Notes: generated by a model not told the origin, from the letters alone. DNA of 64,000 nucleotides from a virus (IMGVR_UViG_3300030380_006185:1-64000), one strand, 5' to 3'; positions 11,667 to 33,901 are shown, numbered from the stretch's first letter. Program-made: numbers and translations.

Positions 11667-12299
11667 CTACATTACAGGACAGGTGCCCTTAGCGCATAGT
11701 ATTTCGGTAATAATTGAATTAGTGCGTGCATATGGATGAAGGAATGTAGATCTAGATTCATTTAATTGACCATTTTTCATCCAAGAATCTGGGTTTGATG
11801 GGTTAGATACTAAATCCCAAGTAAGTAATTCAAAGTCATCTTGTACTTCCATTACTTCACCCATTTGTTTTAATGAACCCATTCCACGAGAAGATATACC
11901 TATAATTAAACCATTTTTAACTAATGCTCCTGCTATACGGCCAGATTCAGTTCCAAGTGGGCCTTCATCACAAAATATTTCTACTTTACCTATTATTTCA
12001 TCTCCATCCCATCTTAATTCTCTAATAGCGTGTGATGCATTTTTTAGGTTAATTACTTGTGAATCAGGATGATCTAGTTCACCACAAGTTTCTGTTGATT
12101 TTTGGTCTATTTTCTTTTGGAAATTACCAATTTCACGTTCCCATAACTCTTTTTTATAATATCTACCATTACCATTTTTAACTTCAACAGTAGCTAAAAC
12201 ACCTTCAACGAAAATATTTCCACCTCTGTTTAATCCTTCTACAAGTCGAACAGGACTTGGTTTAAATTGTCTAGTTTCTATTAAGAGTTCTTTGTTCAT
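11667..12299 (-). CDS. gp21: Prohead protease (T4 gp21 family)
   Basis: KNGNGRYY, GELDHP, NASH, GISSRGMGS, WDLVSNPS. Confidence 0.95.
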   Translation of the reverse strand: MNKELLIETRQFKPSPVRLVEGLNRGGNIFVEGVLATVEVKNGNGRYYKKELWEREIGNFQKKIDQKSTETCGELDHPDSQVINLKNASHAIRELRWDGDEIIGKVEIFCDEGPLGTESGRIAGALVKNGLIIGISSRGMGSLKQMGEVMEVQDDFELLTWDLVSNPSNPDSWMKNGQLNESRSTFLHPYARTNSIITEILCAKGTCPVM

Positions 12300-14122
12300 A
12301 TTTTATATTTACCCATTAGGTGTTGTTCAACAAATTCTATTTCTTCACCCATATAAGCAGGAAATTCAGAAAGAACATTTGCTAGGGCATCTTCATCAGA
12401 CATGTTACCACCTGCATTGTCTCTTCCTGTAAGTCTTTCAAACATTTCTTCAGCTTCATCAGCTACTCTCTCTAATGATTTTTGACGATAGTCTGTTGAT
12501 TCTACTCCTTCTTCAAGTGCATCATCTAATTCTTTTGCAGCATCAGCAGCTCTTTCTAGTTCATCAGCTGCCTCACCCGCTGCTGTAGAGGTTGCTTCTG
12601 CATCTTCACTTGCTATTTCAGAAATAGGTTCATCTTCATCAATTACTTCTTTTTTCTTTGGAGTAGATTTAGCTTTTTTAGCAAGTGCTTTTTCAATTTT
12701 TGCTTTAGCTTTTTCTAATTTTTTAATATCTTTTTGAAGTTCTTTAACTTTCTTTTTATCAGTTAAAGCTTTTAAATCTTCATCTTCATCTAATCTGTTA
12801 AGACGTGCACTTTTTCTTTCAATTAATTCAGCAATTTTTTCAAGTTTAGATTCAAATACTTCATATTCAGCTAATTTATTAATTTCAGCTAATTCTTTTT
12901 CTACACTTTCTCTAATTACTTTTCGGATTTTAGATTCATTTAATGATTCATTTTTAGGTGATTCAGGTTGACCCATTCTTTTTCTAAGATCTTTTTTAAA
13001 TTTTTCCCAAACTTCATCAAATCCATCATCCTCTTTATCTTCAAATACATCACCTCGTATTGTTGGGTTTACATCAAACATGTCTTGAACATCAAACATA
13101 CCCATTTGGTCTGCTTTATTGAGAACTCTCATTACCATAGAACTAGATAATCCTTCCTCACCTAAGTATTCTATGGCTTCTACTTTTTTCATGCCTTTAA
13201 TAGCATTTAAGTAAGTTCCCATATCTTGAGGATTTTTAGTATGTCTAGGTTCTGGGAGTTGGTAGGCACCCATTTCTCTATCAGCATATCCTTCTTCTAA
13301 TTCTTCATTAATTATAGAACGAACTACTTTACGTATTTGATCTTCTTCGTTAATTGATTCTTGAATTGGTTTTAACCTTTTTACTGAAACTTCAATAAAT
13401 TCATCATTCCAATCAAGTTGTGCATAACCACCACCAATATTAACAATAGTAGCTATACTACCATCAAATCTTACTTTATCACCAACTTTAAATGAATGGC
13501 TTTCTATTCCTTCATTTAAATTACCATATCCAGAAGACTTATATTTACCTTTAGGTTCTTTTGGTTCACCTAAACCAGGATGATCTACTGTGTATCCTAA
13601 ATCTTTTACACCAAATTGACCTTTTTCAGTGTAATATGTAGGGTTTTTTTCAAGATTTTTAATTACAATGGATTTTAATTGTTCCATTGTTTTATTTTCA
13701 TTTTTAGGATCCTTCATTTCAGTGTAGTATCCTTTCATAATCTGATCAAAGATTAAATTATCAGGATTTTTCTTATCCTCATAATCAAAATTCTTTTCAG
13801 CGTCTTCTTCTACTTGTTTTGAAGTTTTCTTAAGTTCAGCTTTTTCATCATCAAAGTATTCTTTTTTTGCTTCAGCTAAAAAGTTTTCAAATGCTACTTC
13901 AAATGATTCTTTTTTAGAAGGTGGTAATTGATTAATTGGTTCTAAACCAATAACATTTTCATTAATAAGGTTTTTAGTTTTAAGTACATTTGCTACTTCT
14001 GTATATGTAGCAGCGTTACGAATTAAACCAGGAAACTGTCGTTTAGCTTCCTTGATAAAGATATCTTTATGGCCTTTACCTTCTTTAATTAACAAATACT
14101 GGTCTTGTAATGTCTTTTTCAT
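12296..14122 (-). CDS. Putative prohead core/internal protein (modular, acidic)
   Basis: MKKTLQDQYLLIKE leader; repeated LNE/INE/LEE sites; embedded FKVGDKV module; lies between portal and protease. Confidence 0.6.
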   Translation of the reverse strand: MKKTLQDQYLLIKEGKGHKDIFIKEAKRQFPGLIRNAATYTEVANVLKTKNLINENVIGLEPINQLPPSKKESFEVAFENFLAEAKKEYFDDEKAELKKTSKQVEEDAEKNFDYEDKKNPDNLIFDQIMKGYYTEMKDPKNENKTMEQLKSIVIKNLEKNPTYYTEKGQFGVKDLGYTVDHPGLGEPKEPKGKYKSSGYGNLNEGIESHSFKVGDKVRFDGSIATIVNIGGGYAQLDWNDEFIEVSVKRLKPIQESINEEDQIRKVVRSIINEELEEGYADREMGAYQLPEPRHTKNPQDMGTYLNAIKGMKKVEAIEYLGEEGLSSSMVMRVLNKADQMGMFDVQDMFDVNPTIRGDVFEDKEDDGFDEVWEKFKKDLRKRMGQPESPKNESLNESKIRKVIRESVEKELAEINKLAEYEVFESKLEKIAELIERKSARLNRLDEDEDLKALTDKKKVKELQKDIKKLEKAKAKIEKALAKKAKSTPKKKEVIDEDEPISEIASEDAEATSTAAGEAADELERAADAAKELDDALEEGVESTDYRQKSLERVADEAEEMFERLTGRDNAGGNMSDEDALANVLSEFPAYMGEEIEFVEQHLMGKYKI

Positions 14123-14123
14123 T

Positions 14124-14555
14124 CTATTTTTCTGTTAATAGTTCTTTTATTTCTTTTAAATAGTTTTTAACTATTTCTATTGGTTGTGTGATATCATATG
14201 AACCAGCGTTTCCACCATATAATTCAATTGTATCATTTTTTGCATTAGAAACTAATGGTGTTATTTCATTCATTAATTTCTCAATTTCATCTAACCCAGC
14301 TATACGTTGTTTTTGGAAATCATTCATTTCCCATAATTTTTTCTTATCGTATGATTTGGGTTTTATATTAGGAACATTTTTAAATCCTAATTTATAGTAA
14401 TAAATATTCTTAGCTCCTTTAGCATTCTTATTTTTATTAAAAACAGTTGGAGTAGCATAGTTAGCCCCTTCGCCTGGGGTAAAAGAAGCGCCACCTTGGT
14501 TAGTAGCGGACATTTCTTTTAATTTATTTCTTACTATTTCTTTAATTCTATCCAT
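14124..14555 (-). CDS. Putative head-associated protein
   Basis: MDRIKEIVRNKLKE leader; head gene cluster. Confidence 0.55.
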   Translation of the reverse strand: MDRIKEIVRNKLKEMSATNQGGASFTPGEGANYATPTVFNKNKNAKGAKNIYYYKLGFKNVPNIKPKSYDKKKLWEMNDFQKQRIAGLDEIEKLMNEITPLVSNAKNDTIELYGGNAGSYDITQPIEIVKNYLKEIKELLTEK

Positions 14556-15402
14556 TAGCTATTTCTAATTCGTCAACTAAATCACAATATTGTAATAAAT
14601 CAACTAAATCTTTATCTTTAAGTTTATAATTTTTAGATGGAACTTTAATTAGAGAAGCAACTTCAGCAATTTTTATTTTAGTAACTTTATTTTTAGTATT
14701 TTTATTTAAATCTATCAATTCCTTTTTAATTTCATTTACTTTATTAATGTAAAATTCTTTTAAACGGGGGGCATTATCAATAGCGTTAATATATTCTTTA
14801 AGAATAAGTTTTTGCTTTACAGCTAAATCATTATACTTTCCATTAAATTTTTCCATTAAAATTTTATAGGTAAGCAATTTAGTATCTTTATCAGATTTAT
14901 TAACTTCTTCCATTACCTCATCTCTAACTTTATTTTTTTCAATAGAAGCAACAGTTAAATGTTCTAAAATAGTAATTTTATTTTGGATTAACTGTTCAGG
15001 GTTAGATATATTAGAATTATTTAACTCTAATAAAGTATAAAAGGCTGCAAAAGGTTTATAATTAGGGAGTTTATGGTTAAAGAAATGAGTAATGTCATAG
15101 TGTGATTTTATCTCATTAATTAAGTTATACTTTTGTTTTTTTATAGCTCCCCTATTTAAGGATTTTGAAGATTCAATTAACGTAGAAATTGTAATAGAAG
15201 CTTTAGCTTCAGTTAATGAAGTCCTCTTTAAAAGAGACTCATACAATTTATATTCTCTTCCTAATTCGGATTTTACAAAATACTTTTGCAATAAATCTTT
15301 TGCTGGAGAAATTTTATTCTCTAAAGTATCGTTAGTAATCTGGCGTACTAATAATTCAAATAATATACCAGTGTTTTTATACTTTGAATGTTTTACTTGC
15401 AT
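14548..15402 (-). CDS. Hypothetical head morphogenesis protein
   Basis: KHSKYKNTGILFELL N-terminus; own late-promoter motif; follows portal. Confidence 0.6.
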   Translation of the reverse strand: MQVKHSKYKNTGILFELLVRQITNDTLENKISPAKDLLQKYFVKSELGREYKLYESLLKRTSLTEAKASITISTLIESSKSLNRGAIKKQKYNLINEIKSHYDITHFFNHKLPNYKPFAAFYTLLELNNSNISNPEQLIQNKITILEHLTVASIEKNKVRDEVMEEVNKSDKDTKLLTYKILMEKFNGKYNDLAVKQKLILKEYINAIDNAPRLKEFYINKVNEIKKELIDLNKNTKNKVTKIKIAEVASLIKVPSKNYKLKDKDLVDLLQYCDLVDELEIANG

Positions 15403-15422
15403 TCTTAATAAGTTTGTTTATT

Positions 15423-15430
15423 TATAAATA
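15423..15430 (-). promoter_or_regulatory. Late promoter motif TATTTATA
   Basis: Upstream of ATG 15402. Confidence 0.7.
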
Positions 15431-15442
15431 TATAAAAAAGTA

Positions 15443-17350
15443 TTACTCGTGAATTTGATTTTCATCTAACAAAGAATTACCTTTTATTTCCTTTTCAAAT
15501 ATTATCTGTTTTCTTTGATTTTTAATATCATTAAACATTTTTTTATTCTTATTTCGTTTATTCTTTGTTTCAAGAGCTAAAGGGGATCCACCTTTATAAT
15601 TAGGTTTTATTGAATCTGATGAGTCATTATCTGTTTTCATTCCAACTGCTCCTATTCTATCTTTACCAAAAGCATTATCTTGGGTGTTTCTATTAGTTGC
15701 TTTTTCTTTTGGTCTACCTAATGATTCTTTATCTTCATCATACCCTTCAGGTACTTCTCCATTATCATATCTATTTCTACCATATAATGAAGCTAAATCA
15801 TGAGGTGTACCATATGATTTACCTGTTTCAAGTGGGTCATTTCCTTCATTTTCAATTTGGTTAATACGGAATTTACGTTTAGCATCTTGAGTAATAAGAC
15901 TTCTATATTCATCATATTCATCTTCACTTAAATGGAATATATGTTCATATACAAAATCAGAAGGCATTAACTTATTATCTAAAATTGAATTTGCTAATTC
16001 AACTTTTTCTTTCATTAGTGCTACTCTTTCTTGGTCATATATTATTGAAGGAGTGGTTAAATCAAGTTCAAAGTTTACTAGAGCATCATCTTTATAACCT
16101 TGTGTGTATAAATGTACTAAAGCAATTTTATTAAGTTCTGAAAGGATAATTCGTTGTATTCGTTCTATTGTACGAGCAAATCTAATATCTTCAGCAGCTA
16201 ATGTTGCTTTACCAGTTAAATCTTTTTCATAACCCATAAATGCTTTAGGTACTTTAAGAGCAGCAAATAATTTATCTCTTAAATATTCAACATCTTGAAT
16301 TCCATCCCACTGTAGACCAGCTAAATTTTCAATTTTAGTTGATGTATCATTACCTCTAACAGGAAGATAAAAATCTTCCATAAGGTTTTGCATATTATAT
16401 TTTAAATTATAATCACCAGTTTGTTGGTCAATATATGGAGTACGTTTCATTTTTGAAATTGTTTTCTGCATAAAGTTTTCTACTTCAGCAGGTGCAATAT
16501 TCCCAACATTTATATAAAACATACGTTTTTCAGGTGCTCTAACAATTCTATGAATTAACATAGCATCTTCCATCATTGTATACTGTTTAAACAGTTTACG
16601 AGCTGGTTCTAAGTATGATCTACCATAAGGCAAAAAGTTAGTATCTGAAAGTAACCTAAAATGGGCTACTTCGTAATTATCAAAATATATAGCTTTGTCA
16701 TTTTCACTATTACTATAATTTGAAGAGGGTACTGAATATTGACCTGAAGCAACATTAATACCATCTGGGTCAAATCTAAATCTAACATCACCTGGTCTTT
16801 CAGGATCATAACCATCTTGTCTTTCTATATGAAATGCATTGTAAGGTATAACATTATATACACCAAATTTTTCAGAAATTTCCAATTTTAAAAAGAAATC
16901 TCCATACTTACACATATTTCTAATCCAAGGCCATAAGTTAAACTCTATGTTTAATACATCATAAAATAAATTGTATAGAATTTTTTGAACATCTTCATCA
17001 GAACTTTTAATATGAAGTACTTCCCCCATATCATTTTTGAGTGTAGATTCATCAGAAATAATATCTAAAGCAGAAGCAATAATAGCATCAGTATCCATTG
17101 AATCATACTCAGAATAGAGTTGAGGACGCAACATTTGATAATTAAAACTATTCTGGTATCCATAAATGGAGGTGTTTGAATTAGTATAAATTCTATTAAA
17201 CCTATCAACTAAGGAATTAGTTTCATATTCACCTGAAACTTGAATTTTGTTTATATCAATTACTTTTAATTGATTGTCTCCATCATTTCTGATGATTACA
17301 TCAGTTGAAAATAATCTTCTTAATCTTCCAAATAATCCAGTATCTGCCAT
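15443..17350 (-). CDS. gp20: Portal protein (T4 gp20 family)
   Basis: MEDAMLIHRIVRAPEKRMFYINVGN, MEDFYLP.RG, YLRDKLFAALKVP, EDIRFARTI.RIQ. Confidence 0.95.
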   Translation of the reverse strand: MADTGLFGRLRRLFSTDVIIRNDGDNQLKVIDINKIQVSGEYETNSLVDRFNRIYTNSNTSIYGYQNSFNYQMLRPQLYSEYDSMDTDAIIASALDIISDESTLKNDMGEVLHIKSSDEDVQKILYNLFYDVLNIEFNLWPWIRNMCKYGDFFLKLEISEKFGVYNVIPYNAFHIERQDGYDPERPGDVRFRFDPDGINVASGQYSVPSSNYSNSENDKAIYFDNYEVAHFRLLSDTNFLPYGRSYLEPARKLFKQYTMMEDAMLIHRIVRAPEKRMFYINVGNIAPAEVENFMQKTISKMKRTPYIDQQTGDYNLKYNMQNLMEDFYLPVRGNDTSTKIENLAGLQWDGIQDVEYLRDKLFAALKVPKAFMGYEKDLTGKATLAAEDIRFARTIERIQRIILSELNKIALVHLYTQGYKDDALVNFELDLTTPSIIYDQERVALMKEKVELANSILDNKLMPSDFVYEHIFHLSEDEYDEYRSLITQDAKRKFRINQIENEGNDPLETGKSYGTPHDLASLYGRNRYDNGEVPEGYDEDKESLGRPKEKATNRNTQDNAFGKDRIGAVGMKTDNDSSDSIKPNYKGGSPLALETKNKRNKNKKMFNDIKNQRKQIIFEKEIKGNSLLDENQIHE

Positions 17351-17359: not shown

Positions 17360-18943
17360 TTATATTAGCCAAGAAATATCTTCTTCACCATTTGAGTAAG
17401 GGTTATCAATTTTATATGGGTTTTTAAAAGCACTATCACTAGAATAACCACCTGAGTATTTTGAGGTGTTATTGCTAATGTTATTAAGCATGCTTTTAGT
17501 CATGTCCATTCCTTGTTGTCTTAATTTAAATGCTGTCTCTCTTAAATAACAGCCAATAGAAAAAGATAAAACTAAATCATCATTATACCCTGTTTGGGCT
17601 TCAGCTCTACCGTTTCTCCATATAAATACTTTCATTTCCTCTAATAGTCGCACAGATCGAAATATAACACCACGATCCCGCACAGCTTCTTGGAATTTAC
17701 CAATTGCTATTGGTCTAGTATTTGAAGCCATTGTAAAACCAGGTGTCATTTTGCTATAATCCATATAAGGGTCAAAATAATTATCTACAGACATGCTATT
17801 GCCTTTAGGTGAATGATACAAATTTTGATAACCCCTATCAAGGATAGTTTGAATAGTTGACCATCCTATACTTGAATTTTCAGGTGCAAGTAAAGCATTA
17901 TTATATTCAGTTGCTATACCAACTAATAAATTACCAAAATCTTTTGTACCCATTTGACCTTTATATTCAGCAACTTGAGTAAATGTTTCAACATCAAATA
18001 CATGGAATGCTGAGTAGTCTTTTCCATCACCACGGGCAACATCAGCTACAACTAAATAATCTCTTGAGTAGTCAGCTGGCTCCCATACCCAAAGATTTTT
18101 ATCTGTTCCACGTTTTTCAAGTGGTTCTTTGACACAATCTTTTTCATAATAATCTATATTCTCAGGATAAAAAACAGTATCACCAGAGGTAGAAAAATCG
18201 CAATCACATTCTTGTGCTGCCATTCTTATTCCTAAATCGGCATCTTGTTGGTCTCTCCAAGCTTGGTCTCTTTCAGGATGTACTTCCCAAGGTAAACGTA
18301 TAGGTAAAAAACTATTATCACCTAATTCAGCCGCTACCCATGTTTTGTGGAACCAATTACCTGTACCATAGGGAGTAGATAATGAAATACACCCACCACC
18401 TGTTGCTAATGTTTGTTGAGCTGAGGCCCATATCTCACCTATATTATTAATAAATGCAGCCTCATCAATTATTAACAAAGAAACTGCTTCTGATCTACCA
18501 GCATCTGAACTTGCTGAAGTGGCTTTTATTTGAGAACCATTATTTAGTCTGAGGGTTAATTTATTGTCTTCGGATGGTTTTTGTTTTTCTTTAAGCCATG
18601 AGGGTAAGTTATCATACATAAACTTAACCTTTGTAACCATATTTTTGGCTGTTTCTTGTTTTGTTGCTATACAAAGTATATTTTTATCTTGGTTAAACAA
18701 CATCATCCATAATGAATAACCTGCTGTTAAAGTAGATATACCTAACTGTCTAGATTTTAAAACAATAGAGTAAGGATTTTCTTGAAATAAAGTTAATACT
18801 TTATCTTGAAATGGGTATAAATTAAATTGAATTCGACCTCGTTTAGGATGTTGTATATAACAATATTTACGCATAAAATGTGCGGGTGAAGTAGCACATT
18901 TAACATATTCTTCTCGTATTTTTTGTTTAAGATCTTGATTCAT
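17360..18943 (-). CDS. terL: Terminase large subunit (T4 gp17 family)
   Basis: KSRQLGIST, LIIDEAAF, STPYG, ADVARGDGKDYS, NDDLV. Confidence 0.95.
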   Translation of the reverse strand: MNQDLKQKIREEYVKCATSPAHFMRKYCYIQHPKRGRIQFNLYPFQDKVLTLFQENPYSIVLKSRQLGISTLTAGYSLWMMLFNQDKNILCIATKQETAKNMVTKVKFMYDNLPSWLKEKQKPSEDNKLTLRLNNGSQIKATSASSDAGRSEAVSLLIIDEAAFINNIGEIWASAQQTLATGGGCISLSTPYGTGNWFHKTWVAAELGDNSFLPIRLPWEVHPERDQAWRDQQDADLGIRMAAQECDCDFSTSGDTVFYPENIDYYEKDCVKEPLEKRGTDKNLWVWEPADYSRDYLVVADVARGDGKDYSAFHVFDVETFTQVAEYKGQMGTKDFGNLLVGIATEYNNALLAPENSSIGWSTIQTILDRGYQNLYHSPKGNSMSVDNYFDPYMDYSKMTPGFTMASNTRPIAIGKFQEAVRDRGVIFRSVRLLEEMKVFIWRNGRAEAQTGYNDDLVLSFSIGCYLRETAFKLRQQGMDMTKSMLNNISNNTSKYSGGYSSDSAFKNPYKIDNPYSNGEEDISWLI

Positions 18944-19661: not shown

Positions 19662-20486
19662 TTATTCAACTCCCCTTCCTGCTGCTCTATTTAAATCATC
19701 TAACATTGATTTTGTAAGCTTATATTCTTCTTTAGCTTTTTTCATATAGGCATCAATTTTAGGTTTATCATCTTTAAATTTCTTAATAAACTTTAATCCC
19801 ATATTAAATTTTTCCTTTTTTTCTTCTGGGGTAGATGATAAAGATTTAGCTGTTTCATCACTTGAAATATCAGCAGAAGATGGTCCTTCATCACTTGTAT
19901 CAGAATATTCTACTTTATCAAACCCATCATCATCTTTTGTACGTGTAGATGTTTTAGCAGTTCCTGCAGGGCGCCCTCTTTTACCTGATCCAGTTGATTT
20001 TTCTTTTTTAGGTTTATTAGGGTCTGCTTTTCTACCTCGTTTGCCAGGTTCTTTACCTAATACAGTATTAGCAGCATTTTTTTCAATTGTGTTTGTTGCT
20101 ATATCATCATTAAATTTATCTCCTGCTTCTTCTGCACCAGCAGCAACATCAGAAAGTAAATTTTGAAGGCTAATATCATGAGTATCTTTAAGTTCTTTTT
20201 TAAGATTTTTAACATACCCTTTTAATCGTTGATTATTACCTTCACCTGAAAATACTGGGTCTTTAGATAACTTTTCAATAGTAGCTTTTTCAGCTGCTTT
20301 AACAGCTTTAAGTTCACTATCCATATTTTGTTTTTCTAATTGATCTTTTAATTGTTTCATACTAGCCATTTCAGCTAATTGTTCAATTTCTTTTAATAAA
20401 TCAGAATCCTCAGCTACTGCAGGGATTTCATTTAATGCAGCATCAATTTCTTCTCTAATAATTTCAAGTAAACGAGTTTTTTTCAT
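19662..20486 (-). CDS. Putative internal head protein with AT-hook-like motifs
   Basis: MKKTRLLEIIREEI leader; KRGRK and KRGRP; late-promoter motif upstream. Confidence 0.55.
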   Translation of the reverse strand: MKKTRLLEIIREEIDAALNEIPAVAEDSDLLKEIEQLAEMASMKQLKDQLEKQNMDSELKAVKAAEKATIEKLSKDPVFSGEGNNQRLKGYVKNLKKELKDTHDISLQNLLSDVAAGAEEAGDKFNDDIATNTIEKNAANTVLGKEPGKRGRKADPNKPKKEKSTGSGKRGRPAGTAKTSTRTKDDDGFDKVEYSDTSDEGPSSADISSDETAKSLSSTPEEKKEKFNMGLKFIKKFKDDKPKIDAYMKKAKEEYKLTKSMLDDLNRAAGRGVE

Positions 20487-20507
20487 TACAGTATATTTTT
20501 ATTTATT

Positions 20508-20515
20508 TATAAATA
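20508..20515 (-). promoter_or_regulatory. Late promoter motif TATTTATA
   Basis: Upstream of ATG 20486 (run of genes leading to terminase and portal). Confidence 0.7.
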
Positions 20516-22819: not shown

Positions 22820-23590
22820 TTAGTCTAGATTAGGTTTTCTACCTTTTTCTTTATCCATGTCAATCATTGCTTTAATAGCAGCAGTGTTTGATGGTGAACC
22901 ATAATCTGGTCTTTTAATATCTTTCATATATTCCATTACTTTAAGGTTAAGTTTTTGGGCAGTTTCATCATCTAAAAGATTTAATGCTTTAGCTAAAGCT
23001 AATCTAGGATTTGTCATTTCGTCACTATCAAATAACATACGTACAGTACCCCTAACTGCAGCAGTTCTTCCAGCTCCATATTCATTTAAATTATCTTCCT
23101 CTAAATTTTTCATTACATTCAGATTAGGAACTAATAAATCTCCGGATGAATAGAATTTTTTGCCTGCTTTAGTATATTTATCATCCATTGCTTTTTTAAC
23201 AGGTACTTTTAATGGGTGATATACTTGAAATTCTTTAGGTAATTCAGTTGTTGGACCATAATGATCTGTTTTATTTAATACTTGCTTAAGCATAGGAGGT
23301 ATGTCCATAATTAGCTTTTTAATAGCAATTTGATTAGTATATCCTTTAATTAAATTATTGTATAAAATAGCAGAAATAAATAAAGTATCATTACCAGGGT
23401 TATATACTATATGATCTCCAAATCGTTTTCTGATTTCTGTTGGGAATGGGAGGATGTTTGGGATAAATCTTCTACCATCTCCTTTAGCCATTGATGAGGG
23501 TGATACAGAAGGTATTTGATAACTTTCTTCAATATCTTCACTTAAGATGCGAATAATTTCTTCTTTAATAAGTTGTTTTAAATTTTTCAT
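22820..23590 (-). CDS. Putative internal head protein
   Basis: MKNLKQLIKEEIIRILSE leader; internal LEE/LNE sites. Confidence 0.55.
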   Translation of the reverse strand: MKNLKQLIKEEIIRILSEDIEESYQIPSVSPSSMAKGDGRRFIPNILPFPTEIRKRFGDHIVYNPGNDTLFISAILYNNLIKGYTNQIAIKKLIMDIPPMLKQVLNKTDHYGPTTELPKEFQVYHPLKVPVKKAMDDKYTKAGKKFYSSGDLLVPNLNVMKNLEEDNLNEYGAGRTAAVRGTVRMLFDSDEMTNPRLALAKALNLLDDETAQKLNLKVMEYMKDIKRPDYGSPSNTAAIKAMIDMDKEKGRKPNLD

Positions 23591-23847
23591 TTTTTATATA
23601 TCTTTAATTTAAGACTATTATCTCCTTTTATAACACGGTGCCAATGGTGTCTTGGTATAAATATAAGATTATTTAATGAAGTTGGCAATTCATTATCAAG
23701 TTGTATTTTCCAGTTTGTTTCTCCAAGAATTTCTAAAGTTCGATCTTCATCATCACGATGCCATAATAATTCTATTGGATCTATATTTTCAGAAAATTCA
23801 CGAATAATATAGGAATCTGTAACTTCTATATCAGTGTAAGGTTTCAA
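23587..23847 (-). CDS. Cupin-like small protein
   Basis: WHRD.EDR...FIP...WHRVIKG cupin motifs. Confidence 0.65.
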   Translation of the reverse strand: MKPYTDIEVTDSYIIREFSENIDPIELLWHRDDEDRTLEILGETNWKIQLDNELPTSLNNLIFIPRHHWHRVIKGDNSLKLKIYKK

Positions 23848-24284
23848 GACTTTTTTTTATATTGTGCTTTTTTAGTATTTTTTACAAATTGTTTACCCTT
23901 TTTACCTCCCCTAACTTTTTTAGCTACAGTAGATTTTCTTTCTGCTTTAGTTAAAGATTGTGCTTTAGCTTTGGGTAAACAACGAGTTGTAGCTTTACCT
24001 TTTTTCATTGTACCACAAGGACCAGTTATGTTACCTGAGGTGTTAATACGGACCCATTTTTCTTTTTTAAACCAGTCACGTAAAGATTCTTTAATTATTT
24101 CGTGGATTTGTTCTTCTTTTACACCTTTCCAAATTTTACCTTTTCTACATCTAACTACAGCGCCTGATTTATAAGCAGAAGGTTTATCAAATTTACGATC
24201 AGCAATACGTAAACATCTGTCTCGTTTTTTCTTTTTTTCAGTAAGAACTTCTTTAATTATTTTTTCTAATCTACCCATTACCAA
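23844..24284 (-). CDS. Basic protein (DUF5872-like), putative DNA-binding head protein
   Basis: PSAYKSG, LRDWFKKEKW, RCLP.AKA..L motifs; LEKIIKE leader. Confidence 0.6.
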   Translation of the reverse strand: MVMGRLEKIIKEVLTEKKKKRDRCLRIADRKFDKPSAYKSGAVVRCRKGKIWKGVKEEQIHEIIKESLRDWFKKEKWVRINTSGNITGPCGTMKKGKATTRCLPKAKAQSLTKAERKSTVAKKVRGGKKGKQFVKNTKKAQYKKKS

Positions 24285-25453
24285 AATCCACTAAAGGATG
24301 ATTTTAAACCTAACAATTTAGCATAGCGAGGTAGTCTACAAGACCAGTATGATGCTTTTGTTCTATCTTTCTTTTCAGAACATCTATGACGTTTTGCAAA
24401 TGCTCGTCTTGCTTTAGGGTTATTAATTTTTGCTTTTAATCCACCAGAACCAAATGTAACTTTTTTAATACGTTTTGTTTTAGGATCTCTAACATAAACA
24501 TAATATGCCTTAGGACCACCACGTTTTGGTTTTCCTATAGGGGGATTTTTTTTCTTTTTCTTTTTCTTAGCTTCTTGAAGAGTAAAATTTGATATTGATC
24601 TATACCACTTTACTAACTCGTCATAATTCATATCAAATGCTGGGTAGTTAGGATCATTTTCAAATTTATCTAATTCTTTAGGGAATCTTTCTAACATTTT
24701 TCTAATAGCATCCATTCTGTTATTAGTAGCTTTTATAGTTTTACTAGCGTTAAATAAGTTGTCTTTAGGTAATTTCCAATCCCTATCCCATGTTCTTCTA
24801 TCTATACCATAACTAGCAGGTCCAGTGTATATGTTATTATCATCTTCCCAATCATCTTCCCAATCCAAATCTTCTGATTCAGCAAGTTGAATATCATCTA
24901 CTTTTAGAGGCTCTTCACCAACTATATATCGCACATCATTAAAAAGTGTGTCACGTATTATATCATCAATAATATATATTTTATTTGGGTCTAAGTTTTT
25001 AAAACTAGACTTATCACCAACAAACTTTACTTTATCACCTATATTAAAAGACTCATTAACTATATTTTCCATAGGTAAACCTAAAGGTACTTTTTTACCT
25101 TCATACATTCCATAGTTACCTAAGTCAGTTTCTTCTAAAATTTCTTTATCATCATCATTTACATGAATAATTTCACGTAAATATAAATAACGTGCTTCTT
25201 GCCATAAATTAAGGAAAGATTCGGAACCATAACGGAATGTGTTTTCGGTTAGTGGTAATTTATTTTGCACGTGATATTGCAGATTTTCCGATAGTATTTG
25301 TTTAGGAGCTTTATTTTCATTTAGTAACACACCTTCATTACCTACATTATCACAAGTATTGCAACCGCAGTTACAATCTTTCTTTTTTGGTTGAGTAGAT
25401 AATACTTCTTTTATTAAATTTGTTAAACGTGTCATATTAAAATAATTTATCAA
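24278..25453 (-). CDS. Modular putative head protein with basic C-terminal domain (likely start 25435)
   Basis: MTRLTNLIKE leader; modules bounded by L-x-E; KKVTFG...RRAFAKRHRC...ASYWSC C-terminus. Confidence 0.6.
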   Translation of the reverse strand: MINYFNMTRLTNLIKEVLSTQPKKKDCNCGCNTCDNVGNEGVLLNENKAPKQILSENLQYHVQNKLPLTENTFRYGSESFLNLWQEARYLYLREIIHVNDDDKEILEETDLGNYGMYEGKKVPLGLPMENIVNESFNIGDKVKFVGDKSSFKNLDPNKIYIIDDIIRDTLFNDVRYIVGEEPLKVDDIQLAESEDLDWEDDWEDDNNIYTGPASYGIDRRTWDRDWKLPKDNLFNASKTIKATNNRMDAIRKMLERFPKELDKFENDPNYPAFDMNYDELVKWYRSISNFTLQEAKKKKKKKNPPIGKPKRGGPKAYYVYVRDPKTKRIKKVTFGSGGLKAKINNPKARRAFAKRHRCSEKKDRTKASYWSCRLPRYAKLLGLKSSFSGFW

Positions 25454-26420
25454 AATTTAAAGCTAAGGCACTTTGAGCGGATTTAAAATTACTTAAAAAA
25501 TTATCATCTGTTTTTAATTTTTCTAAATCAACAGCAAAAAATCTAACATCACCATCTTCTTTTAGACTAGCTAAAAAACCACCAGTTCCAGGTTTTCTTT
25601 TAAGTTTAGCAGTAACTAATTCATGTGCCATATTCCTAGCTCCTTCTTCAGCAGTACTAAAATTTCCTAATTTATCAACTAAAGAATCTATATTATTTTT
25701 AATAGTAGCAAATAAAGGATATGTTTTTGCTAAATCACCTAATTCTAAATTTTTTAATTTTACTACATTTTCCATAGCTGGGATTAAATCTGTGCCTTTA
25801 AAATTTGTTGGGTTAATGGTTTTTATTACTTCATCTTTTCCTAGTACTTTAACTAAGTTATTAAGTCCAAAAATCATTCCTAGTAAACGTAAGTTTTCTT
25901 TATCAGCTCCATATCTACCTAAATTTAATAATCCAGTATGTTTATCATAAGCTTTAACCTCTACTCCTACTCCATTAAACTTTAAATCAGGGTCATCTCC
26001 TTCTCTTCCCATAGTAACATCAACCCCACTATTAGAGTAATTATATAACCAATAAAGAGAAATTTCCCCATTTCCTACTCCTAAAGAACCAGCAGTTCCT
26101 ACTTCTTTACCTACTTTAGGTGGTTTTACACTCCATAATTTTTTCCATATATCTAAGTCATCAGATTTAACTTGGATATCAAATGTTGAACTACCTCCAA
26201 ATTTATATCTATTTTTAGATTGAGGAATAGTATCTATGTTTAAAGCATTTAAAATAACCTTATCATATTGTTCGTTTCCTTCTTTTAATAAAGATTTTTC
26301 TTCTGTTACTTCATGGATCATTTTAAACAGCATATCTTTATCCTTAGGATCATTCATGTCAGGATATCCTTTAGGAAATTTATAAGCTATACCATGTAAA
26401 AATTTATCTAAAACGTCCAT
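25437..26420 (-). CDS. PD-(D/E)xK restriction-like nuclease fold behind an N-terminal propeptide
   Basis: GVGNGEISL...PDL...GVEVK; leader YKFPKGYPDMNDPKD...LLKE. Confidence 0.55.
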   Translation of the reverse strand: MDVLDKFLHGIAYKFPKGYPDMNDPKDKDMLFKMIHEVTEEKSLLKEGNEQYDKVILNALNIDTIPQSKNRYKFGGSSTFDIQVKSDDLDIWKKLWSVKPPKVGKEVGTAGSLGVGNGEISLYWLYNYSNSGVDVTMGREGDDPDLKFNGVGVEVKAYDKHTGLLNLGRYGADKENLRLLGMIFGLNNLVKVLGKDEVIKTINPTNFKGTDLIPAMENVVKLKNLELGDLAKTYPLFATIKNNIDSLVDKLGNFSTAEEGARNMAHELVTAKLKRKPGTGGFLASLKEDGDVRFFAVDLEKLKTDDNFLSNFKSAQSALALNFDKLF

Positions 26421-28064: not shown

Positions 28065-28793
28065 TTATTCTTCTCCTCCAATGTACTCACCTACAAAGAA
28101 TTTTAAGGTGTTTCCTATTTGAGTAGTAAGTTTTTCGTTGTCCATTCCTTTGGATACTTTTAGAGCTGATATTAAGTGGTCCATAAGATCACCTTCATCA
28201 CCTTTCATATCAGCGGCTATATCTTCTAATCCACCTCCAGTTTCAGATTCTTCTTCAGTTTCTTCTTCTTCAGTTTCTTCCTCTTCAGGTGCTTCCTCTG
28301 TGTCTTCGGATTCATCAGTTTCTATTTCATCTTCTTCAGCTTCGTCTAAAGATTCTTCAAATGGTATACTACTAAGATAAGCTGCTATTTCAGCTTCTTC
28401 TTCTGCTTGTCTTTTTTGCTCTTCATAATCTATTTCTTCCTCTTCATCTTCAGGATCCATCATTTCTTCTAGCTCAATATCAGTTTGGTGTGAATGTTGA
28501 TAGTAAGATTTTTCATCATCATCATAATCACCATACATTTCTTCCTCACTTGTTCCTTCATAATCAAGTTCAGGATCCATTTCTTCACTTAATTCGTTAA
28601 TAATCATTTCACGAATTTTTTTACGTAAAGAAGTTTTCTTATCATCAGCCATATCTTTTTCTAAAGCATCAATGTGTTCAGCATCATCTGCTTCAGCATC
28701 TTTTTCATATTGGTTTTCCTTTAAATAAGGATTGGAATTTTCAATAGATTTATTTTCTACTAAAAACTTTTTTAAATCAAAGTTATCTTTCAT
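28065..28793 (-). CDS. Highly acidic putative prohead/internal protein
   Basis: MKDNFDLKKFLVENK leader; E/D-rich; late-promoter motif upstream. Confidence 0.6.
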   Translation of the reverse strand: MKDNFDLKKFLVENKSIENSNPYLKENQYEKDAEADDAEHIDALEKDMADDKKTSLRKKIREMIINELSEEMDPELDYEGTSEEEMYGDYDDDEKSYYQHSHQTDIELEEMMDPEDEEEEIDYEEQKRQAEEEAEIAAYLSSIPFEESLDEAEEDEIETDESEDTEEAPEEEETEEEETEEESETGGGLEDIAADMKGDEGDLMDHLISALKVSKGMDNEKLTTQIGNTLKFFVGEYIGGEE

Positions 28794-28808
28794 TTTATTT
28801 TAATTTAT

Positions 28809-28816
28809 TATAAATA
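28809..28816 (-). promoter_or_regulatory. Late promoter motif TATTTATA
   Basis: Upstream of ATG 28793. Confidence 0.7.
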
Positions 28817-29467: not shown

Positions 29468-29468
29468 T

Positions 29469-30041
29469 TTATTTCTTAAGATTTTTTAAATAATTAATTC
29501 CTTCTTCCATAGCTGTATTGGCACGGTTTTTGTCAATTCCACCAACCCATTTTTGTATATCACCCGCCTCTGTAATATAATTATTATTACTTTCAGAAAG
29601 CATATCTTCCATAAAACTTTTATATTCTTCAATATTAATATCTATTTCTTTATTAAACGTAGTATTAATATACTCTTCCCATTTACCTTCATTCTTTAAC
29701 TTTGTTTCAGTAGTTGCTCTACAGTCAACACATTCTCCATAAGCTTTATAGTAATGTGGGTCTAACTGTTTATCCATAACTTGTTTACAGTTTGGACAAA
29801 ATATTGGAACAGCAACGTTTTTAAATTTATCTAATTTTGTTATATTTTCTTTTATACCATCTCGAATAGTCCATGTTTTACCATCTTCTTCCCAAACATC
29901 ACCTTCTTTATGTGAAATTGATTCTTCACCATTATAACCTATACCAGTTGTAGTTTTATTACCTGTCTTACCTTTTACTAAATTTCTAAGGCGTTCTACA
30001 TCTCGTTTTTGGAATTGTTTTTTTAATACTGAATCTGACAT
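29469..30041 (-). CDS. Zn-ribbon hypothetical protein
   Basis: CPNC...CVDC. Confidence 0.65.
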   Translation of the reverse strand: MSDSVLKKQFQKRDVERLRNLVKGKTGNKTTTGIGYNGEESISHKEGDVWEEDGKTWTIRDGIKENITKLDKFKNVAVPIFCPNCKQVMDKQLDPHYYKAYGECVDCRATTETKLKNEGKWEEYINTTFNKEIDINIEEYKSFMEDMLSESNNNYITEAGDIQKWVGGIDKNRANTAMEEGINYLKNLKK

Positions 30042-30586
30042 TATATTTCTAGTTGTTTAAGTTGATCAATTGTATTTTCTGCTGATGTATATAATATTCC
30101 TATACCTCCTGCATTATTCCAATTATCAATTGTGCTTGCCTTATCGTCTATAAGTATGTCTGATTTGGTTAAAGATGGTTTAATTTTATGTTTTTCTTTT
30201 GCAGGTTTAAAATTAACTTTAGGTGTATTAGGGAATAAATCAGAATGGATTTTACGTAACCATATCATTTTCCCTAATCTTGATTGTTTTTTAATAGAAG
30301 GGGCAGTTAATATTTCATAATCATATTGTGAAACATAATCTACTAATTTTTTAGCCCCAGGCATTAATGGTATACCAGCCCAAAATCTAACTTTATTTTC
30401 TATATCTATAAAATCCCAAAATTGATTCATACCATATTTATCTCTATATTCATCAGGTGTCATTCCAGATAAATCTAAAAATCGTTGGTCAAAATCAGCT
30501 ATTACACCATCCATGTCTAAATAGATAGTATACGCAGATACTTCATTTTCTTTAATTAATTTATATAATTCAAATAAATTTGACAT
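30041..30586 (-). CDS. HAD-family 5'(3')-deoxyribonucleotidase-like phosphatase
   Basis: YLDMDGVIADF, ILTAP, ILIDD, W..AGG.GI. Confidence 0.85.
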   Translation of the reverse strand: MSNLFELYKLIKENEVSAYTIYLDMDGVIADFDQRFLDLSGMTPDEYRDKYGMNQFWDFIDIENKVRFWAGIPLMPGAKKLVDYVSQYDYEILTAPSIKKQSRLGKMIWLRKIHSDLFPNTPKVNFKPAKEKHKIKPSLTKSDILIDDKASTIDNWNNAGGIGILYTSAENTIDQLKQLEI

Positions 30587-30588
30587 GG

Positions 30589-33156
30589 TTAAAATTTAGG
30601 TAAACTTAATGCTTTTCTTCTACTTCTCCAAAGATTTAATATTATTTGTTTATCTTTAGGAGTAATATCTTGGGCATCTAAATAAGTATTTATTACATCT
30701 GCAAATGGTCTTCTTTCTTTTTTAGCTCTAAAATACATTCCTTGTAAATTAGCATCTACTTCTTTTGGTAATTTAAAATATTCAGCTTGTGGAATTATAT
30801 CAGCTTTTACTAAAGCTCGTATTGTCATATCAAAATCTTCATCAAAATCTTCCTTTTTAGTTTTTGAGTCACCTGATTGGGTTATGTGTTCAATTTCATG
30901 TCTTACAACATCTTTAAGATTCATAGAAATTTCTTCCCAAAATTTAGGCAACATTTCAGGATCAACTATAAAGTTTATTTTAATAAAACCAGGGTATTCT
31001 TTTTTCTTTTTTTTATCTATGTAAGCATAATCACTTCCACCATCTACTTTAAGTTTACCAAATTTGGGTTTGTATATTATTTGTGCATAAACTTGAATAC
31101 CTCTTGGAGGAAAATCATAATTATCTTCATATGTTGAATCCATTTCACCTTCATCAAAATCTTCTTTCCAAAAATTAAATATATCTCTTGAAATTTGGTT
31201 TGATAAGGTATCATAACGACCTTCTTCTAAAGTAGCTAATTCTCTAGCAAATTGATTTAAACCAAAAGGATCTTTACCTAAATTTTTATCAAATCCATGT
31301 TTATGCTTATATGGTTTTTCCTTTTCATTTAAACTAGTAACTTCTTCTCCGTCTATTCCATCTGTGTAATTTCTAAAAAGCATATTACCTTTTGTATATG
31401 CTTCTCTTTCTATATCATTTAAATAATCATCTTCCATTGTGTTAGTAGTACTAATATCTTTTAGTCTACCTTCTAAATTTTGAATATGATGAATCATTTC
31501 ATGAGCATATGATCTTACTATATCTTTAGGATGTCTACCTTCAGTATATAATACTATTATTTTATTGTTTGGATCATAATATGCAGTTTTACCTAAAAAT
31601 TTTTTAGCATTTTCTTCATTATTGTGCTTAAATATTATTTTAGGTAAAGGTTTAACATTCATACCTTTTTTTAACATATGATCTGTTAAATTTATAATTT
31701 CTTGCTTATAGTCTATATGATTAGAATATGTAGCATTTTCATTAAGTGGTTTATATCCCGAACCAAACGGAGCAGCTTTACCATTATGGTCAGGAGCAAC
31801 ATTTTCTTTTTTTAGTTCTGGGTGGAATTTCATATAAACTTCCTTAGCATCAGGTTTAATTGATTCATCATCTACTAATACTTCAACAGGATATACTTTA
31901 GCATCATCTCCATACCAATAGTTCATTTTATATCCACCTTCTTTAGTTAATTCAACAATTAATCCTCTATTATAGTCTTCACTTTCAGCTTGCAGGTATA
32001 TTTTTTTACCTCTTGGTAAAACTAAAGATGTTTTTTCTAAAATATCTTCATTTAAGTTTTCTTCTAAATTTTGATTTACAGGAATTTGTCTTACATCTTT
32101 AGGGCCAAAATTAGAAGGATAAGGTTCTATAATATTACTTATTTTAATATTATTTTCTTCCATAGTAATTTCAAATGGGGATGGGGAAACATTAGTATAA
32201 TAATCATAATAAAATTTAACTTTATCAAAATTAGTATCTATAGCTTCATTAGTTTTTTGTTTTTTTAAACGTTGAGTTTTTTTCTTAGATGCTTCTTTAC
32301 GTTTTTTAATATATTCAAAAGCAGAACGTAATTTAGCTTTCTTTTGAGGATCTTTTGTTCTACTTAAAGCAGCTCTTACTCTTTGGTGTATTAAATTAAT
32401 TACTTGAGATTGACGAGCATGAGATTTAGATTTAAAAGAAGTTTTATTTAAAGTATCTATTATGTCTTGTCTTGTAGAAAATTTAACTTTAACAGTATCT
32501 TTTGGATTTTCATCTGTATACAAACGTCTACCTGATCCTTTAGGTTTTTTACCTGTACCTTTTTTAGGATCACCTTCATTTAAAGTAGATGATGTTAAAA
32601 TATTCCAAATTTCATCTAGATTAGCATTAATAGGTATAAAAAATTTAAAAACTTCTTTATCATTATTCATTAATGCTTTTCTAGCATTAGTACCACTCAT
32701 TCCACCATCTGGGGTAGATGTTATTTTTAAATCTAAATTTGGATGTTTATCTATAGATACTGATCTAGCTGATATATCTTGCATATCATCTTCTCTTCCT
32801 TCTCTTGCTCCTATAATCCAATATATAGAATCTTCAGGATTGTCTTTAGCATATCTATAAATATCTCCAATTGGGGAAACTGATTTTTCTATTCTGACTG
32901 GTTTACCAATTAAAGGTTTATAATGTTCATCCCAAATTTTATATGCTTGATCTTGTGTAATCCCATCTCTTACTTTACTCCCAACATAAATTATAATATT
33001 ATCTATTTCAGGATTATCTTTTAAGGCATTTTGAATTACAGCTAAATGACCTGCAGTAGGTGGTTTAAATCCACCACCAAAAACAGCAGTAACCTCTTTA
33101 CCATCTATACTTTCAGGTAAAAGATCTTTAATGAGTGATTTAGTTAAGGAATCCAT
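30589..33156 (-). CDS. Multidomain protein: HxGH-type nucleotidyltransferase, basic domain and two HExxH metalloprotease-like domains
   Basis: FGGGFKPPTAGH...MSGT.AR; LYTDENPKDTV; AHEMIHHIQ; RHEIEHITQ. Confidence 0.75.
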   Translation of the reverse strand: MDSLTKSLIKDLLPESIDGKEVTAVFGGGFKPPTAGHLAVIQNALKDNPEIDNIIIYVGSKVRDGITQDQAYKIWDEHYKPLIGKPVRIEKSVSPIGDIYRYAKDNPEDSIYWIIGAREGREDDMQDISARSVSIDKHPNLDLKITSTPDGGMSGTNARKALMNNDKEVFKFFIPINANLDEIWNILTSSTLNEGDPKKGTGKKPKGSGRRLYTDENPKDTVKVKFSTRQDIIDTLNKTSFKSKSHARQSQVINLIHQRVRAALSRTKDPQKKAKLRSAFEYIKKRKEASKKKTQRLKKQKTNEAIDTNFDKVKFYYDYYTNVSPSPFEITMEENNIKISNIIEPYPSNFGPKDVRQIPVNQNLEENLNEDILEKTSLVLPRGKKIYLQAESEDYNRGLIVELTKEGGYKMNYWYGDDAKVYPVEVLVDDESIKPDAKEVYMKFHPELKKENVAPDHNGKAAPFGSGYKPLNENATYSNHIDYKQEIINLTDHMLKKGMNVKPLPKIIFKHNNEENAKKFLGKTAYYDPNNKIIVLYTEGRHPKDIVRSYAHEMIHHIQNLEGRLKDISTTNTMEDDYLNDIEREAYTKGNMLFRNYTDGIDGEEVTSLNEKEKPYKHKHGFDKNLGKDPFGLNQFARELATLEEGRYDTLSNQISRDIFNFWKEDFDEGEMDSTYEDNYDFPPRGIQVYAQIIYKPKFGKLKVDGGSDYAYIDKKKKKEYPGFIKINFIVDPEMLPKFWEEISMNLKDVVRHEIEHITQSGDSKTKKEDFDEDFDMTIRALVKADIIPQAEYFKLPKEVDANLQGMYFRAKKERRPFADVINTYLDAQDITPKDKQIILNLWRSRRKALSLPKF

Positions 33157-33901
33157 TTATTTTACTTTTTATTTGGTCTTGGGATGTAAATTCAGGTAAG
33201 TCTGAGAGTAGTTGTTTAATAGAGGATTCAAGTTCTTGTTGTTCAGCTTTCTTTTTTTCTATTTCTTCGTCACTATATTCACGAGCAGCAGTTACTTGAT
33301 CAAAATAATTTTGAACTTCTTTTTCATTATATGTTTTATCTACTCCTTTAGGGTCATTATTTACTAAAATAAAATTATCTCCAAACATGTTTTGAAAAGT
33401 ATTAATATTTTTATTTACTTTTTCCCAAGTACGAACTATAATTGAAGGGCGAAGTGATCTACCTCCTGCTTCTCCTCTAGATCTATTACGTTCTAAAGAT
33501 ACAAGTGGTGAAACATATATCATTACCATCATTGTATCATATCCTAAATCTTCTAATTGTGTTTTTTTCTTTAATATAGGATTTGAAGCTGCTCCGGTAC
33601 CATCAATTATAATACTTTCTCCCTCTTCTTGAGCAGATTGTAGTTTTGCTGTTGTTTCTTTACGAGCTCTACTCATTAATTTAGATGATTGAGACAATTC
33701 ATCTGAAGTAAAAGTTGATTGAGGTTTATCTAAGCCTGCTTGTTTAAGTAATTCTTCATATGTGTCATCTACATTAATTACTTTTAAATTAGGGATATTA
33801 TTTTTAATAAAAGTGGATTTACCACTTCCTGCAGGTCCAGCTAAAAATATGGCTTTAGGTGGGGATTGGATCTCTTTTAATAGTTTTACTAGACTTACCA
33901 T
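33140..33901 (-). CDS. Zeta-toxin/AAA_33-like P-loop kinase
   Basis: AIFLAGPAGSGKS, INVDD, IIDGTG, SLERN..R. Confidence 0.8.
   Translation of the reverse strand: MVSLVKLLKEIQSPPKAIFLAGPAGSGKSTFIKNNIPNLKVINVDDTYEELLKQAGLDKPQSTFTSDELSQSSKLMSRARKETTAKLQSAQEEGESIIIDGTGAASNPILKKKTQLEDLGYDTMMVMIYVSPLVSLERNRSRGEAGGRSLRPSIIVRTWEKVNKNINTFQNMFGDNFILVNNDPKGVDKTYNEKEVQNYFDQVTAAREYSDEEIEKKKAEQQELESSIKQLLSDLPEFTSQDQIKSKINGFLN

Follow-up and report, generated by a model that had tools for sequence, protein, structure and literature searches.

Short N-Terminal Tags Resembling the T4 Capsid-Targeting Sequence on Many Unrelated Proteins of a Distant T4-like Phage

The 64,000-nucleotide viral sequence IMGVR_UViG_3300030380_006185:1-64000 (the window) forms the start of a single phage contig of 156,273 bp, 96% complete by CheckV, and contains a series of genes for otherwise unrelated proteins that begin with a short leader peptide ending in a hydrophobic residue, a variable residue, and Glu. 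These leaders are real modular tags under selection at the level of the peptide. With a probability that we put at ∼0.6, they represent an expanded version of the system by which phage T4 targets proteins to its capsid and cleaves off the targeting peptide; for the enzymes that bear such leaders, our confidence in this reading is lower than for the set overall. The genome (∼30% G+C, with nearly every gene on the minus strand) belongs to a phage that is distantly T4-like and falls in the Flavobacterium-phage immuto lineage. The closest cultured relative is Flavobacterium phage vB_FspM_immuto (immuto), with 60% identity in the major capsid protein (MCP), followed by Microcystis phage Mel-JY01 (50%) and Rhodothermus phage RM378 (36%).

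The original prediction had described one leader of the type "LIKE," ending in (L/I)-x-E, on a dozen proteins. All eleven N-termini that it quoted are the starts of real minus-strand open reading frames (ORFs), located where it had placed them. The (L/I)-x-E motif is present near the N-terminus as claimed, but its enrichment is weak: when it was counted in the first 16 residues of 232 ORFs with shuffled N-termini as the null, 60 ORFs carried it, compared with 43 ± 5 after shuffling, a difference of only ∼3 standard deviations. The loose motif is thus barely above the shuffles, and part of that list would be chance. The tetrapeptide L[LIV]KE, counted in the same way, was found in 13 of the 232 ORFs (shuffle mean, 1.2; internal windows, 0.2%). 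A stricter pattern, Φ-x-x-Φ-Φ-x-E, with hydrophobic residues (Φ) at P7, P4, and P3 and Glu at P1, was compared with 2000 shuffles that preserve N-terminal composition. With Glu at residue 10 it occurs in 5 ORFs and with Glu at residue 12 in 13, where ∼0.6 was expected in each case and the shuffles reached a maximum of 4; among the ORFs of this phage, none has the pattern with Glu at residue 11. The ORFs of immuto gave the same picture.

As a control, the same scripts were applied to T4 (NC_000866) with the template ^M-x-x-Φ-x-x-Φ-Φ-x-E. The only T4 ORFs to match were IPII, IPIII, gp24, and gp61.1; IPII and IPIII start with MKTYQEFIAE and gp24 with MAKINELLRE, and Alt (MELITELFDE) also matches when read from its annotated start. 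IPII, IPIII, gp24, and Alt are classic substrates of T4 gp21. In the T4 tag, Asp in place of Glu prevents processing and leaves targeting intact. The loose pattern, in contrast, had 21 matches in T4 where 11 were expected, among them DNA polymerase, ligase, and RNase H. By this control, only the strict template, not the loose pattern, is informative. The sole strict-template match outside the known T4 head proteins, gene 61.1 (NC_000866 18966–19130, minus strand), encodes an uncharacterized protein of 54 amino acids (aa) that starts with MKTFKEFIKE, close to the MKTYQEFIAE of IPII and IPIII.

The following proteins of the window carry leaders:

12296–14122, minus strand: 608-aa head-core protein; leader MKKTLQDQYLLIKE at 14081–14122, with a second site, FIKE
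14124–14555, minus strand: 143-aa head-module protein; leader MDRIKEIVRNKLKE at 14514–14555
19662–20486, minus strand: 274-aa tagged protein, class A; leader MKKTRLLEIIREEIDAALNE at 20427–20486
22820–23590, minus strand: 256-aa tagged protein; leader MKNLKQLIKE at 23561–23590, extending to ..ILSE
23844–24278, minus strand: 144-aa very basic tagged protein, DUF5872; leader MGRLEKIIKEVLTE at 24237–24278
24278–25435, minus strand: 385-aa tagged protein; leader MTRLTNLIKE at 25406–25435
28065–28793, minus strand: 242-aa very acidic tagged protein, class B; leader MKDNFDLKKFLVE at 28755–28793
30041–30586, minus strand: NT5C/HAD 5′-nucleotidase; N-terminal extension MSNLFELYKLIKE at 30548–30586
30589–33156, minus strand: 855-aa NMNAT-like multi-module protein; leader MDSLTKSLIKDLLPE at 33112–33156
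33140–33901, minus strand: Zeta-toxin/PNK-like P-loop kinase (Pfam Zeta_toxin and AAA_33; Foldseek agrees); decapeptide MVSLVKLLKE at 33872–33901
48790–49137, minus strand: 115-aa tagged protein in the baseplate region; leader MKTEVLKKLIKE at 49102–49137

The proteins at 22820 (Glu at residue 10), 23844, 24278, and 33140 match the T4 template exactly, classes A and B match it with an offset of two residues, and the proteins at 12296 and 14124 match at P3 and P1 only. Whether the motif is equally common in replication and baseplate proteins was checked, and the primase, exonuclease, portal, tail-fiber, and neck genes lack the pattern in 97%–100% of their orthologs.

The single "LIKE" leader gave way to at least four classes of tag. 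Class A is MKxSxLKQLIKEEIxxxLNE, class B is MxxFNLKKYLxENKLLNE, class C is ..RMQKLAG(I/V)..E, and class D consists of 10 residues, M-(I/V)-x-L-x-x-L-L-x-E, in exactly the register of T4. The genes listed in the original prediction are real but form only part of the set, which comprises ∼25 tagged genes genome-wide (5529 residues, ∼10.6% of the genome), including a tandem array of 11 at 97666–102496, outside the window, and further single ones elsewhere. Hidden Markov models (HMMs) of the leaders were built from the array leaders alone and searched against the entire genome translated in six frames. The next-best matches after the seeds were the true N-termini of the window genes at 22820, 48790, 19662, and 28065; the 256-aa and 115-aa proteins were the best (E = 0.003) and second-best non-seed matches of the class-A model, and the leader of the 242-aa protein matched the class-B model at E = 2e-4. 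One array gene, 98942–99274, begins with a class-A leader, contains a copy of the class-B core, LAENKLLNE, further in, and looks like a fusion of two tagged genes.

Beyond the leader the proteins are indeed unrelated, as no BLASTP similarity extends past residue 22. Most have no ortholog in immuto (the 256-aa protein is one of these), and immuto carries the same tags on other bodies; the 115-aa protein has a tagged counterpart there, MKLDLLKKLIKE. A degenerate DNA pattern for tag B retrieved at least 119 stretches from IMG/VR. Of 93 matches, 84 lie at residue 3–4 of an ORF, and 70 distinct proteins fall into at least 47 clusters of bodies. Neighboring genes place the tag-B contigs in the same deep T4-like clade, with protease identities of 41%–58%. 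A tblastn search of phage records with a 20-aa tag gave no match, a word-index protein-database search with residues 1–40 of the protein at 22820 returned orthologs only, and most of the putative cargo could be assigned no function from PHROGs or Pfam.

Conservation and the levels of replacement (pN) and synonymous (pS) change were obtained from 150 related IMG/VR loci. In five of the seven tags tested, pN/pS is 0.006–0.38, with pS at 0.4–0.8. For the kinase and the genes at 28065 and 14124, pN/pS is lower in the tag than in the body, and the tag has diverged no less at synonymous sites than other regions. P2 varies freely between a fixed P3 and a fixed P1: the second site of the protein at 19662 reads A-L-(N/R/H/G)-E, a site at 28065 reads L-(V/K/T)-E, and the two sites at 23844 read I-(K/Q/R/N)-E and L-(T/Q/E/L/A/S)-E. 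Conserved sites with the full pattern that end at residues 10–14 were found in 5 of 31 gene families, for which ∼0.03 was predicted, and inside proteins such sites occur at 0.12 per 100 residues. Hyper-conservation of the N-terminus marks the genes at 19662, 12296, and 28065; it does not separate the enzymes from untagged genes.

The leader of the 608-aa protein is invariant in relatives (pN 0.003, pS 0.57) while the body falls to 42% identity, and the immuto ortholog retains two sites, AIQE and FIAE. In the 143-aa protein, K-L-(K/A/T)-E followed by MSATN-x-GGA is kept in relatives down to 37% identity. Leader identity is 0.90 in the 274-aa protein, compared with 0.40 for the body (21 orthologs), and the full pattern is present in 15 of 16 distinct ortholog N-termini of the 385-aa protein. 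The 242-aa protein retains F-L-x-E, with a variable P2, in all eight orthologs, and its mature part contains 86 Asp and Glu residues (isoelectric point, pI, 4.1). The 144-aa protein has two conserved Φ-x-E sites and a mature part with a pI of 10.7, basic as in the internal proteins of T4.

A protease that would suit such leaders is encoded nearby. The head module is of the T4 type, in the order portal, core proteins, protease, scaffold, MCP, with three genes, for proteins of 284, 143, and 608 aa, between portal and protease. Besides the two tagged core proteins, it includes:

8558–10213, minus strand: MCP, Gp23 family (Pfam PF07068, 1e-74; domain from residue 78)
10240–11538, minus strand: gp22-like scaffold, acidic, between protease and MCP
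11667–12299, minus strand: gp21-type prohead serine protease, Peptidase S77 (Pfam PF03420, 5e-25, above the curated cut-off)
14548–15402: 284-aa gene of the head-core operon
15443–17350: portal
17360–18943: TerL

When the protease is aligned with T4 gp21, the catalytic His (GEL(D/N)HP) and Ser (SSRG) are invariant, H77 and S136/S137 lining up with GELNHP and SSRG of T4, and the two enzymes have in common the T4 N-terminal LLIE site and a C-terminal L/I-x-E site. The MCP starts with MSTINSLLE, and the SLLE to which the original prediction drew attention is kept in all relatives. The predicted maturation site of the MCP, LVTE followed by ASATNQGG, lies at 10031–10042; in relatives, Q-L-V-(T/V)-E and then S-x-T-N-x-G-G are conserved at the expected maturation point. 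After its own predicted cut, the 143-aa protein would start with MSATNQGGASF..G.G, close to the predicted mature MCP N-terminus, ASATNQGGGTF..GQG, and both sequences are conserved in relatives. This likeness could be an extended recognition site of the protease or a mimic of the capsid N-arm.

The scaffold is connected to the tags through its C-terminus. Its true start is the ATG at 11538; the mechanically called ORF (11628) begins 30 codons early, and relatives and immuto start with MATNRDLLKE. The RDLLKE that had been counted among the leaders does stand at this true start, but its Glu is Gln in immuto, so it is not a conserved site. At the other end, the peptide RMQKLAGIIK (10243–10272) belongs to a C-terminus, F-x-RMQKLAG(I/L)I, that is invariant in all relatives and recurs as the N-terminal tag C on cargo genes. 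This identity points to class-C cargo docking at the site where the scaffold itself binds. A search for co-variation between tag C and the scaffold C-terminus in more distant contigs, which are fragments, gave scaffold copies only. The tripeptide LNE, with which the class-A and class-B tags end, occurs 47 times where 21 occurrences are expected, and its density in scaffold, core, and tagged proteins is five times that of all other proteins. More than one LNE is found only in the scaffold (three), the 608-aa core protein (two), the 855-aa protein (four), and one array gene (two).

Tagged and structural genes also have an upstream sequence in common. TATTTATAA has 24 sense-strand copies genome-wide, of which 22 are intergenic and lie 2–24 nt before a start codon. 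It precedes sheath, tube, baseplate, neck, and head-core genes, and likewise the tagged genes at 19662, 28065, 48790, 95179, and 140646 and the first gene of the array. The following copies in the window are relevant here:

15422–15430, minus strand: TATTTATAA before the head-core operon (284-aa gene, 143-aa gene, 608-aa gene, protease, scaffold, MCP)
20507–20515: TATTTATAA before the 274-aa gene
28808–28816: TATTTATAA before the 242-aa gene
33904–33912: one-mismatch version, TATGTATAA, 2 nt before the kinase ATG
49144–49152: TATTTATAA before the 115-aa gene

In relatives, the motif is retained before the genes at 14548 (89%), 19662 (79%), 28065 (50%), and 24278 (39%). The T4 late promoter is TATAAATA, and by analogy we infer that TATTTATAA is a late promoter.

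The original prediction extended the leaders to enzymes, and the enzyme tags are indeed conserved across relatives. The kinase decapeptide keeps the T4 register in all 32 distinct ortholog N-termini, down to 27% identity, compared with 0%–3% of the orthologs of the neighboring primase, exonuclease, and tail-fiber genes. M-x-x-Φ-x-x-Φ-Φ-x-E is likewise present in 105 of 120 database homologs of the kinase (the best 120 of 2608, all at least 52% identical). In the AlphaFold model (mean predicted local distance difference test score, pLDDT, 86), residues 1–10 form a short helix before the first strand with a pLDDT of 53, and nearly all other residues score >82, apart from two short dips to 74 and 61. 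Leu4 is invariant and Glu10 is retained in at least 90% of sequences, which places them among the most conserved positions of the protein. Low pLDDT combined with high conservation suits a peptide that binds something else.

The 855-aa protein has internal LNE joints at 32575–32583, 32047–32055, 31738–31746, and 31324–31332. Two of them, LNE 192–194 and 471–473, align with the terminal Glu of the 10-aa tags of stand-alone homologs: the modules occur as separate genes with the tags MISLIKILNE, MIKLSYLLNE, and MIKLSSLLSE in the relatives L110, L102, L103, L121, and L125. Orthologs of the 855-aa protein vary widely in length (467–1120 aa among the 25 tagged ones examined). Most of the longer ones have (L/V/I)-N-E before modules, and modules are inserted, lost, and reordered between the joints; four shorter orthologs of the 25 have no such joint. 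Less certainly, and by analogy with T4, cleavage at the L-N-E joints would process the protein in the manner of a polyprotein. ESM Atlas searches with the HExxH modules gave only weak metallopeptidase leads. In the 5′-nucleotidase, the Pfam NT5C match begins at residue 21, which corresponds to profile position 4, so that ∼17 extra residues precede the domain. Φ-x-E is present at residues 8–20 in all 30 distinct ortholog N-termini and the full pattern in 40%.

Several of the tagged genes lie together in a tight run of nine minus-strand ORFs (28065–22820), headed by the motif copy at 28808–28816, in which those at 28065, 24278, 23844, and 22820 are mixed with untagged ones. ORFs 26896 and 26420 match separate parts of one 841-aa immuto protein. 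A 327-aa protein (25437–26420, minus strand) has a strongly conserved N-terminal block of ∼45 residues (MDxLxxFLxxIAYKFPKGYPDM), followed in most relatives by a hydrophobic-x-Glu site and then a hypervariable body with a mean identity of 0.24; lying in the same run as the tagged genes, this block may be a longer class of propeptide. The 250 nt between two tagged genes at 23591–23843 have no ATG-started ORF and hold an 86-aa frame with a TTG start; the interval is a noncoding spacer or else a gene with an atypical start. At the edge of the window, an open-ended 1425-aa ORF (1–4276, minus strand) has a G+C content of 40%, compared with ∼30% for the rest of the window.

The proposal of the original prediction that the leaders are T4-type capsid-targeting sequences is supported by their length, hydrophobic register, and terminal L/I-x-E, by the matching gp21-type protease, and by the late-promoter-like motif common to tagged and structural genes. 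Its members in the window are probably two head-core proteins and five proteins of unknown function and, with less certainty, the three enzymes. From the parallel with T4, we infer core binding, cleavage, retention in the head, and injection. The tagged proteins would be made late in infection alongside the head proteins, and the tag would bind the scaffolding core, so that the protein is built into the prohead. The gp21-type protease would then cut after the terminal hydrophobic-x-Glu, freeing the mature protein inside the head, where it would stay with the DNA and probably enter the next host with it.

Several observations weigh against this reading. The cutting specificity of this S77 protease is assumed from T4, and no virion proteome, N-terminal sequence, or packaging assay was found for this phage or a close relative. 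The tags of the 144-aa and 385-aa proteins do not have a pN/pS below that of their bodies. TerL, too, starts with a leader-like stretch, LKQKIREE, which we discount, as it presumably corresponds to an internal segment of T4 TerL. Most of the adverse points concern the enzymes. In this genome their block has the late motif only in the one-mismatch form, and it is placed after the primase and exonuclease genes; the N-terminal conservation ratio of the kinase is 1.2, no higher than that of some untagged genes; and the 5′-nucleotidase is the weakest of the three, with a loosely conserved tag. The exact motif does stand before the kinase ATG in relatives, at 2 nt in L087 and L095 and at 29 nt in L139. 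Overall, the evidence for the enzymes as cargo is mixed and leans in favor.

The leaders might instead be a by-product of composition or of events at the DNA level, arising from A/T-rich codons at the starts of genes in a genome of 30% G+C or from 5′ ends conserved only as joints at which recombination shuffles genes. The marginal excess of the loose motif and the many non-head proteins that it matches in T4 would fit such an origin, and the array leaders, 85%–95% identical in DNA by eye, would favor recombination. The strict patterns, however, exceed all 2000 composition-keeping shuffles, and in five of the seven tags tested replacements are suppressed although synonymous divergence in the tags matches that of other regions; for these reasons the by-product explanation fails for the strict set. 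The window copies of the leaders, moreover, differ from the array copies in DNA and keep the peptide, and a fixed P3 and P1 around a free P2 also speaks against it. We consider this explanation very improbable as a general account: it is largely refuted for the strict set and explains part of the looser list, for example RDLLKE of the scaffold. An unlikely account, if a less remote one, is that the tags are recognition peptides for some other partner, such as the phage GroEL/GroES, a cytoplasmic enzyme complex, or a modifying enzyme, and that the proteins act in the cell and are never packaged. The tag array does start directly downstream of the phage GroES/GroEL genes, and the kinase, the NMNAT-like protein, and the nucleotidase resemble a metabolic trio beside replication genes. 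Yet the tags follow the T4 register, with the head protease's cutting motif at their end, tag C copies the scaffold C-terminus, the two head-core proteins between portal and protease carry L-x-E leaders (not in the strict register), and the late motif is common to tagged and structural genes. A radical-SAM partner of the RB43 type was looked for and not found; the sole radical-SAM match, which falls below the cut-off, is the deazaguanine-pathway enzyme QueE.

For the enzymes alone, a further explanation has a greater, still limited, chance of being correct: the N-terminal helices may be parts of the enzymes, with a role in folding, oligomerization, or regulation, and merely look like tags, the cargo being confined to the small proteins of unknown function and the core proteins. 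The Zeta_toxin profile meets residue 12 of the kinase at profile position 13, which leaves no clear added length; N-terminal conservation is unremarkable, with ratios of ∼1.2; and the block has no exact late motif in this genome. Against a helix integral to the kinase stand the low pLDDT of a segment whose Leu4 and Glu10 hardly vary and the T4 register in every ortholog, set against its near absence from neighboring genes. The extra residues before the NT5C domain, the 855-aa modules found as separate genes whose 10-aa tags align at Glu with the internal LNE, and the exact late motif before the kinase in three relatives count against this explanation as well.

The T4 capsid-targeting sequence is carried by IPI–III, Alt, and gp24 and is removed by gp21 (Mullaney and Black, 1996, reviewed in PMC9026906; PMC3012670; PMC8442874). 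The sequence of the T4 tag has been given (PMC8442874), and residues 4 and 7 have been assigned to targeting and residues 8 and 10 to processing (PMC9026906). The leaders described here likewise are short N-terminal peptides with hydrophobic residues at 4, 7, and 8 and Glu at 10, ending in L/I-x-E. As in T4, they stand on otherwise unrelated, fast-changing proteins, a gp21-family protease lies in the same head-module order, and Alt provides a precedent for enzyme cargo. The set differs from that of T4 in comprising ∼25 tagged genes, ∼10% of the genome, rather than ∼5; in having at least four classes, two of them 18–20 residues long with a second L-x-E and one a copy of the scaffold C-terminus; and in placing tags on a kinase, a nucleotidase, and a protein whose several modules meet at internal L-N-E joints. 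The hosts belong to a lineage of the Bacteroidota type, and the system is known from sequence alone.

Two further comparisons are instructive. In T-even phages, the targeting sequence is all that the polymorphic loci for internal proteins have in common (reference 23 of PMC3012670; reference 69 of PMC9026906). There, as here, the leader is constant, the bodies are exchangeable and unrelated, and the set differs between related phages; in the present phages, however, exchange extends across a deep clade, with protease identity down to 41%, and modules fuse and split at the terminal L-N-E of the tag. In phiKZ, 201phi2-1, and SPN3US, head and ejection proteins are cut after Glu by a diverged gp21 homolog (PMC9026906, PMC5694885, PMC7411985). 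These giant phages resemble the present one in having many head-internal proteins, including enzymes, with propeptides cut after a short motif ending in Glu. They differ in that their propeptides are long and have no common short tag, in being jumbo phages with an inner body, and in that their processing has been demonstrated by mass spectrometry. In the literature searched, the coverage of which was incomplete, no description was found of such a system in T4-like phages beyond the T-evens and the giant phages. The present system differs from those known in the size of the set, its several classes, the copy of the scaffold end, the metabolic-type enzymes, the multi-module protein jointed by protease motifs, and the phage lineage.

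More speculatively, and at a level of confidence well below that for capsid targeting itself, the T4 head-loading signal may have become a general plug-in address in this lineage. About one-tenth of the coding capacity would then be delivered pre-made with the DNA, including NAD-related enzymes (the zeta-type kinase, the NMNAT-like protein, and the nucleotidase) and a polyprotein cut in the head, and cargo would be recruited by the fusion and splitting of genes at L-N-E.

If capsid targeting is the correct reading, sequence by itself would predict, for a whole clade of T4-like phages abundant in marine and fresh waters, which proteins are injected before gene expression begins, and the tagged genes would form a ready list of candidate anti-defense and host-takeover factors. 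The tags would also be natural means of loading proteins into capsids of phages other than those of coli. The 10-residue address of T4 would predate the T-even phages and extend beyond them, and fusion and fission at a protease motif would provide a simple route by which the cargo of a phage head evolves.

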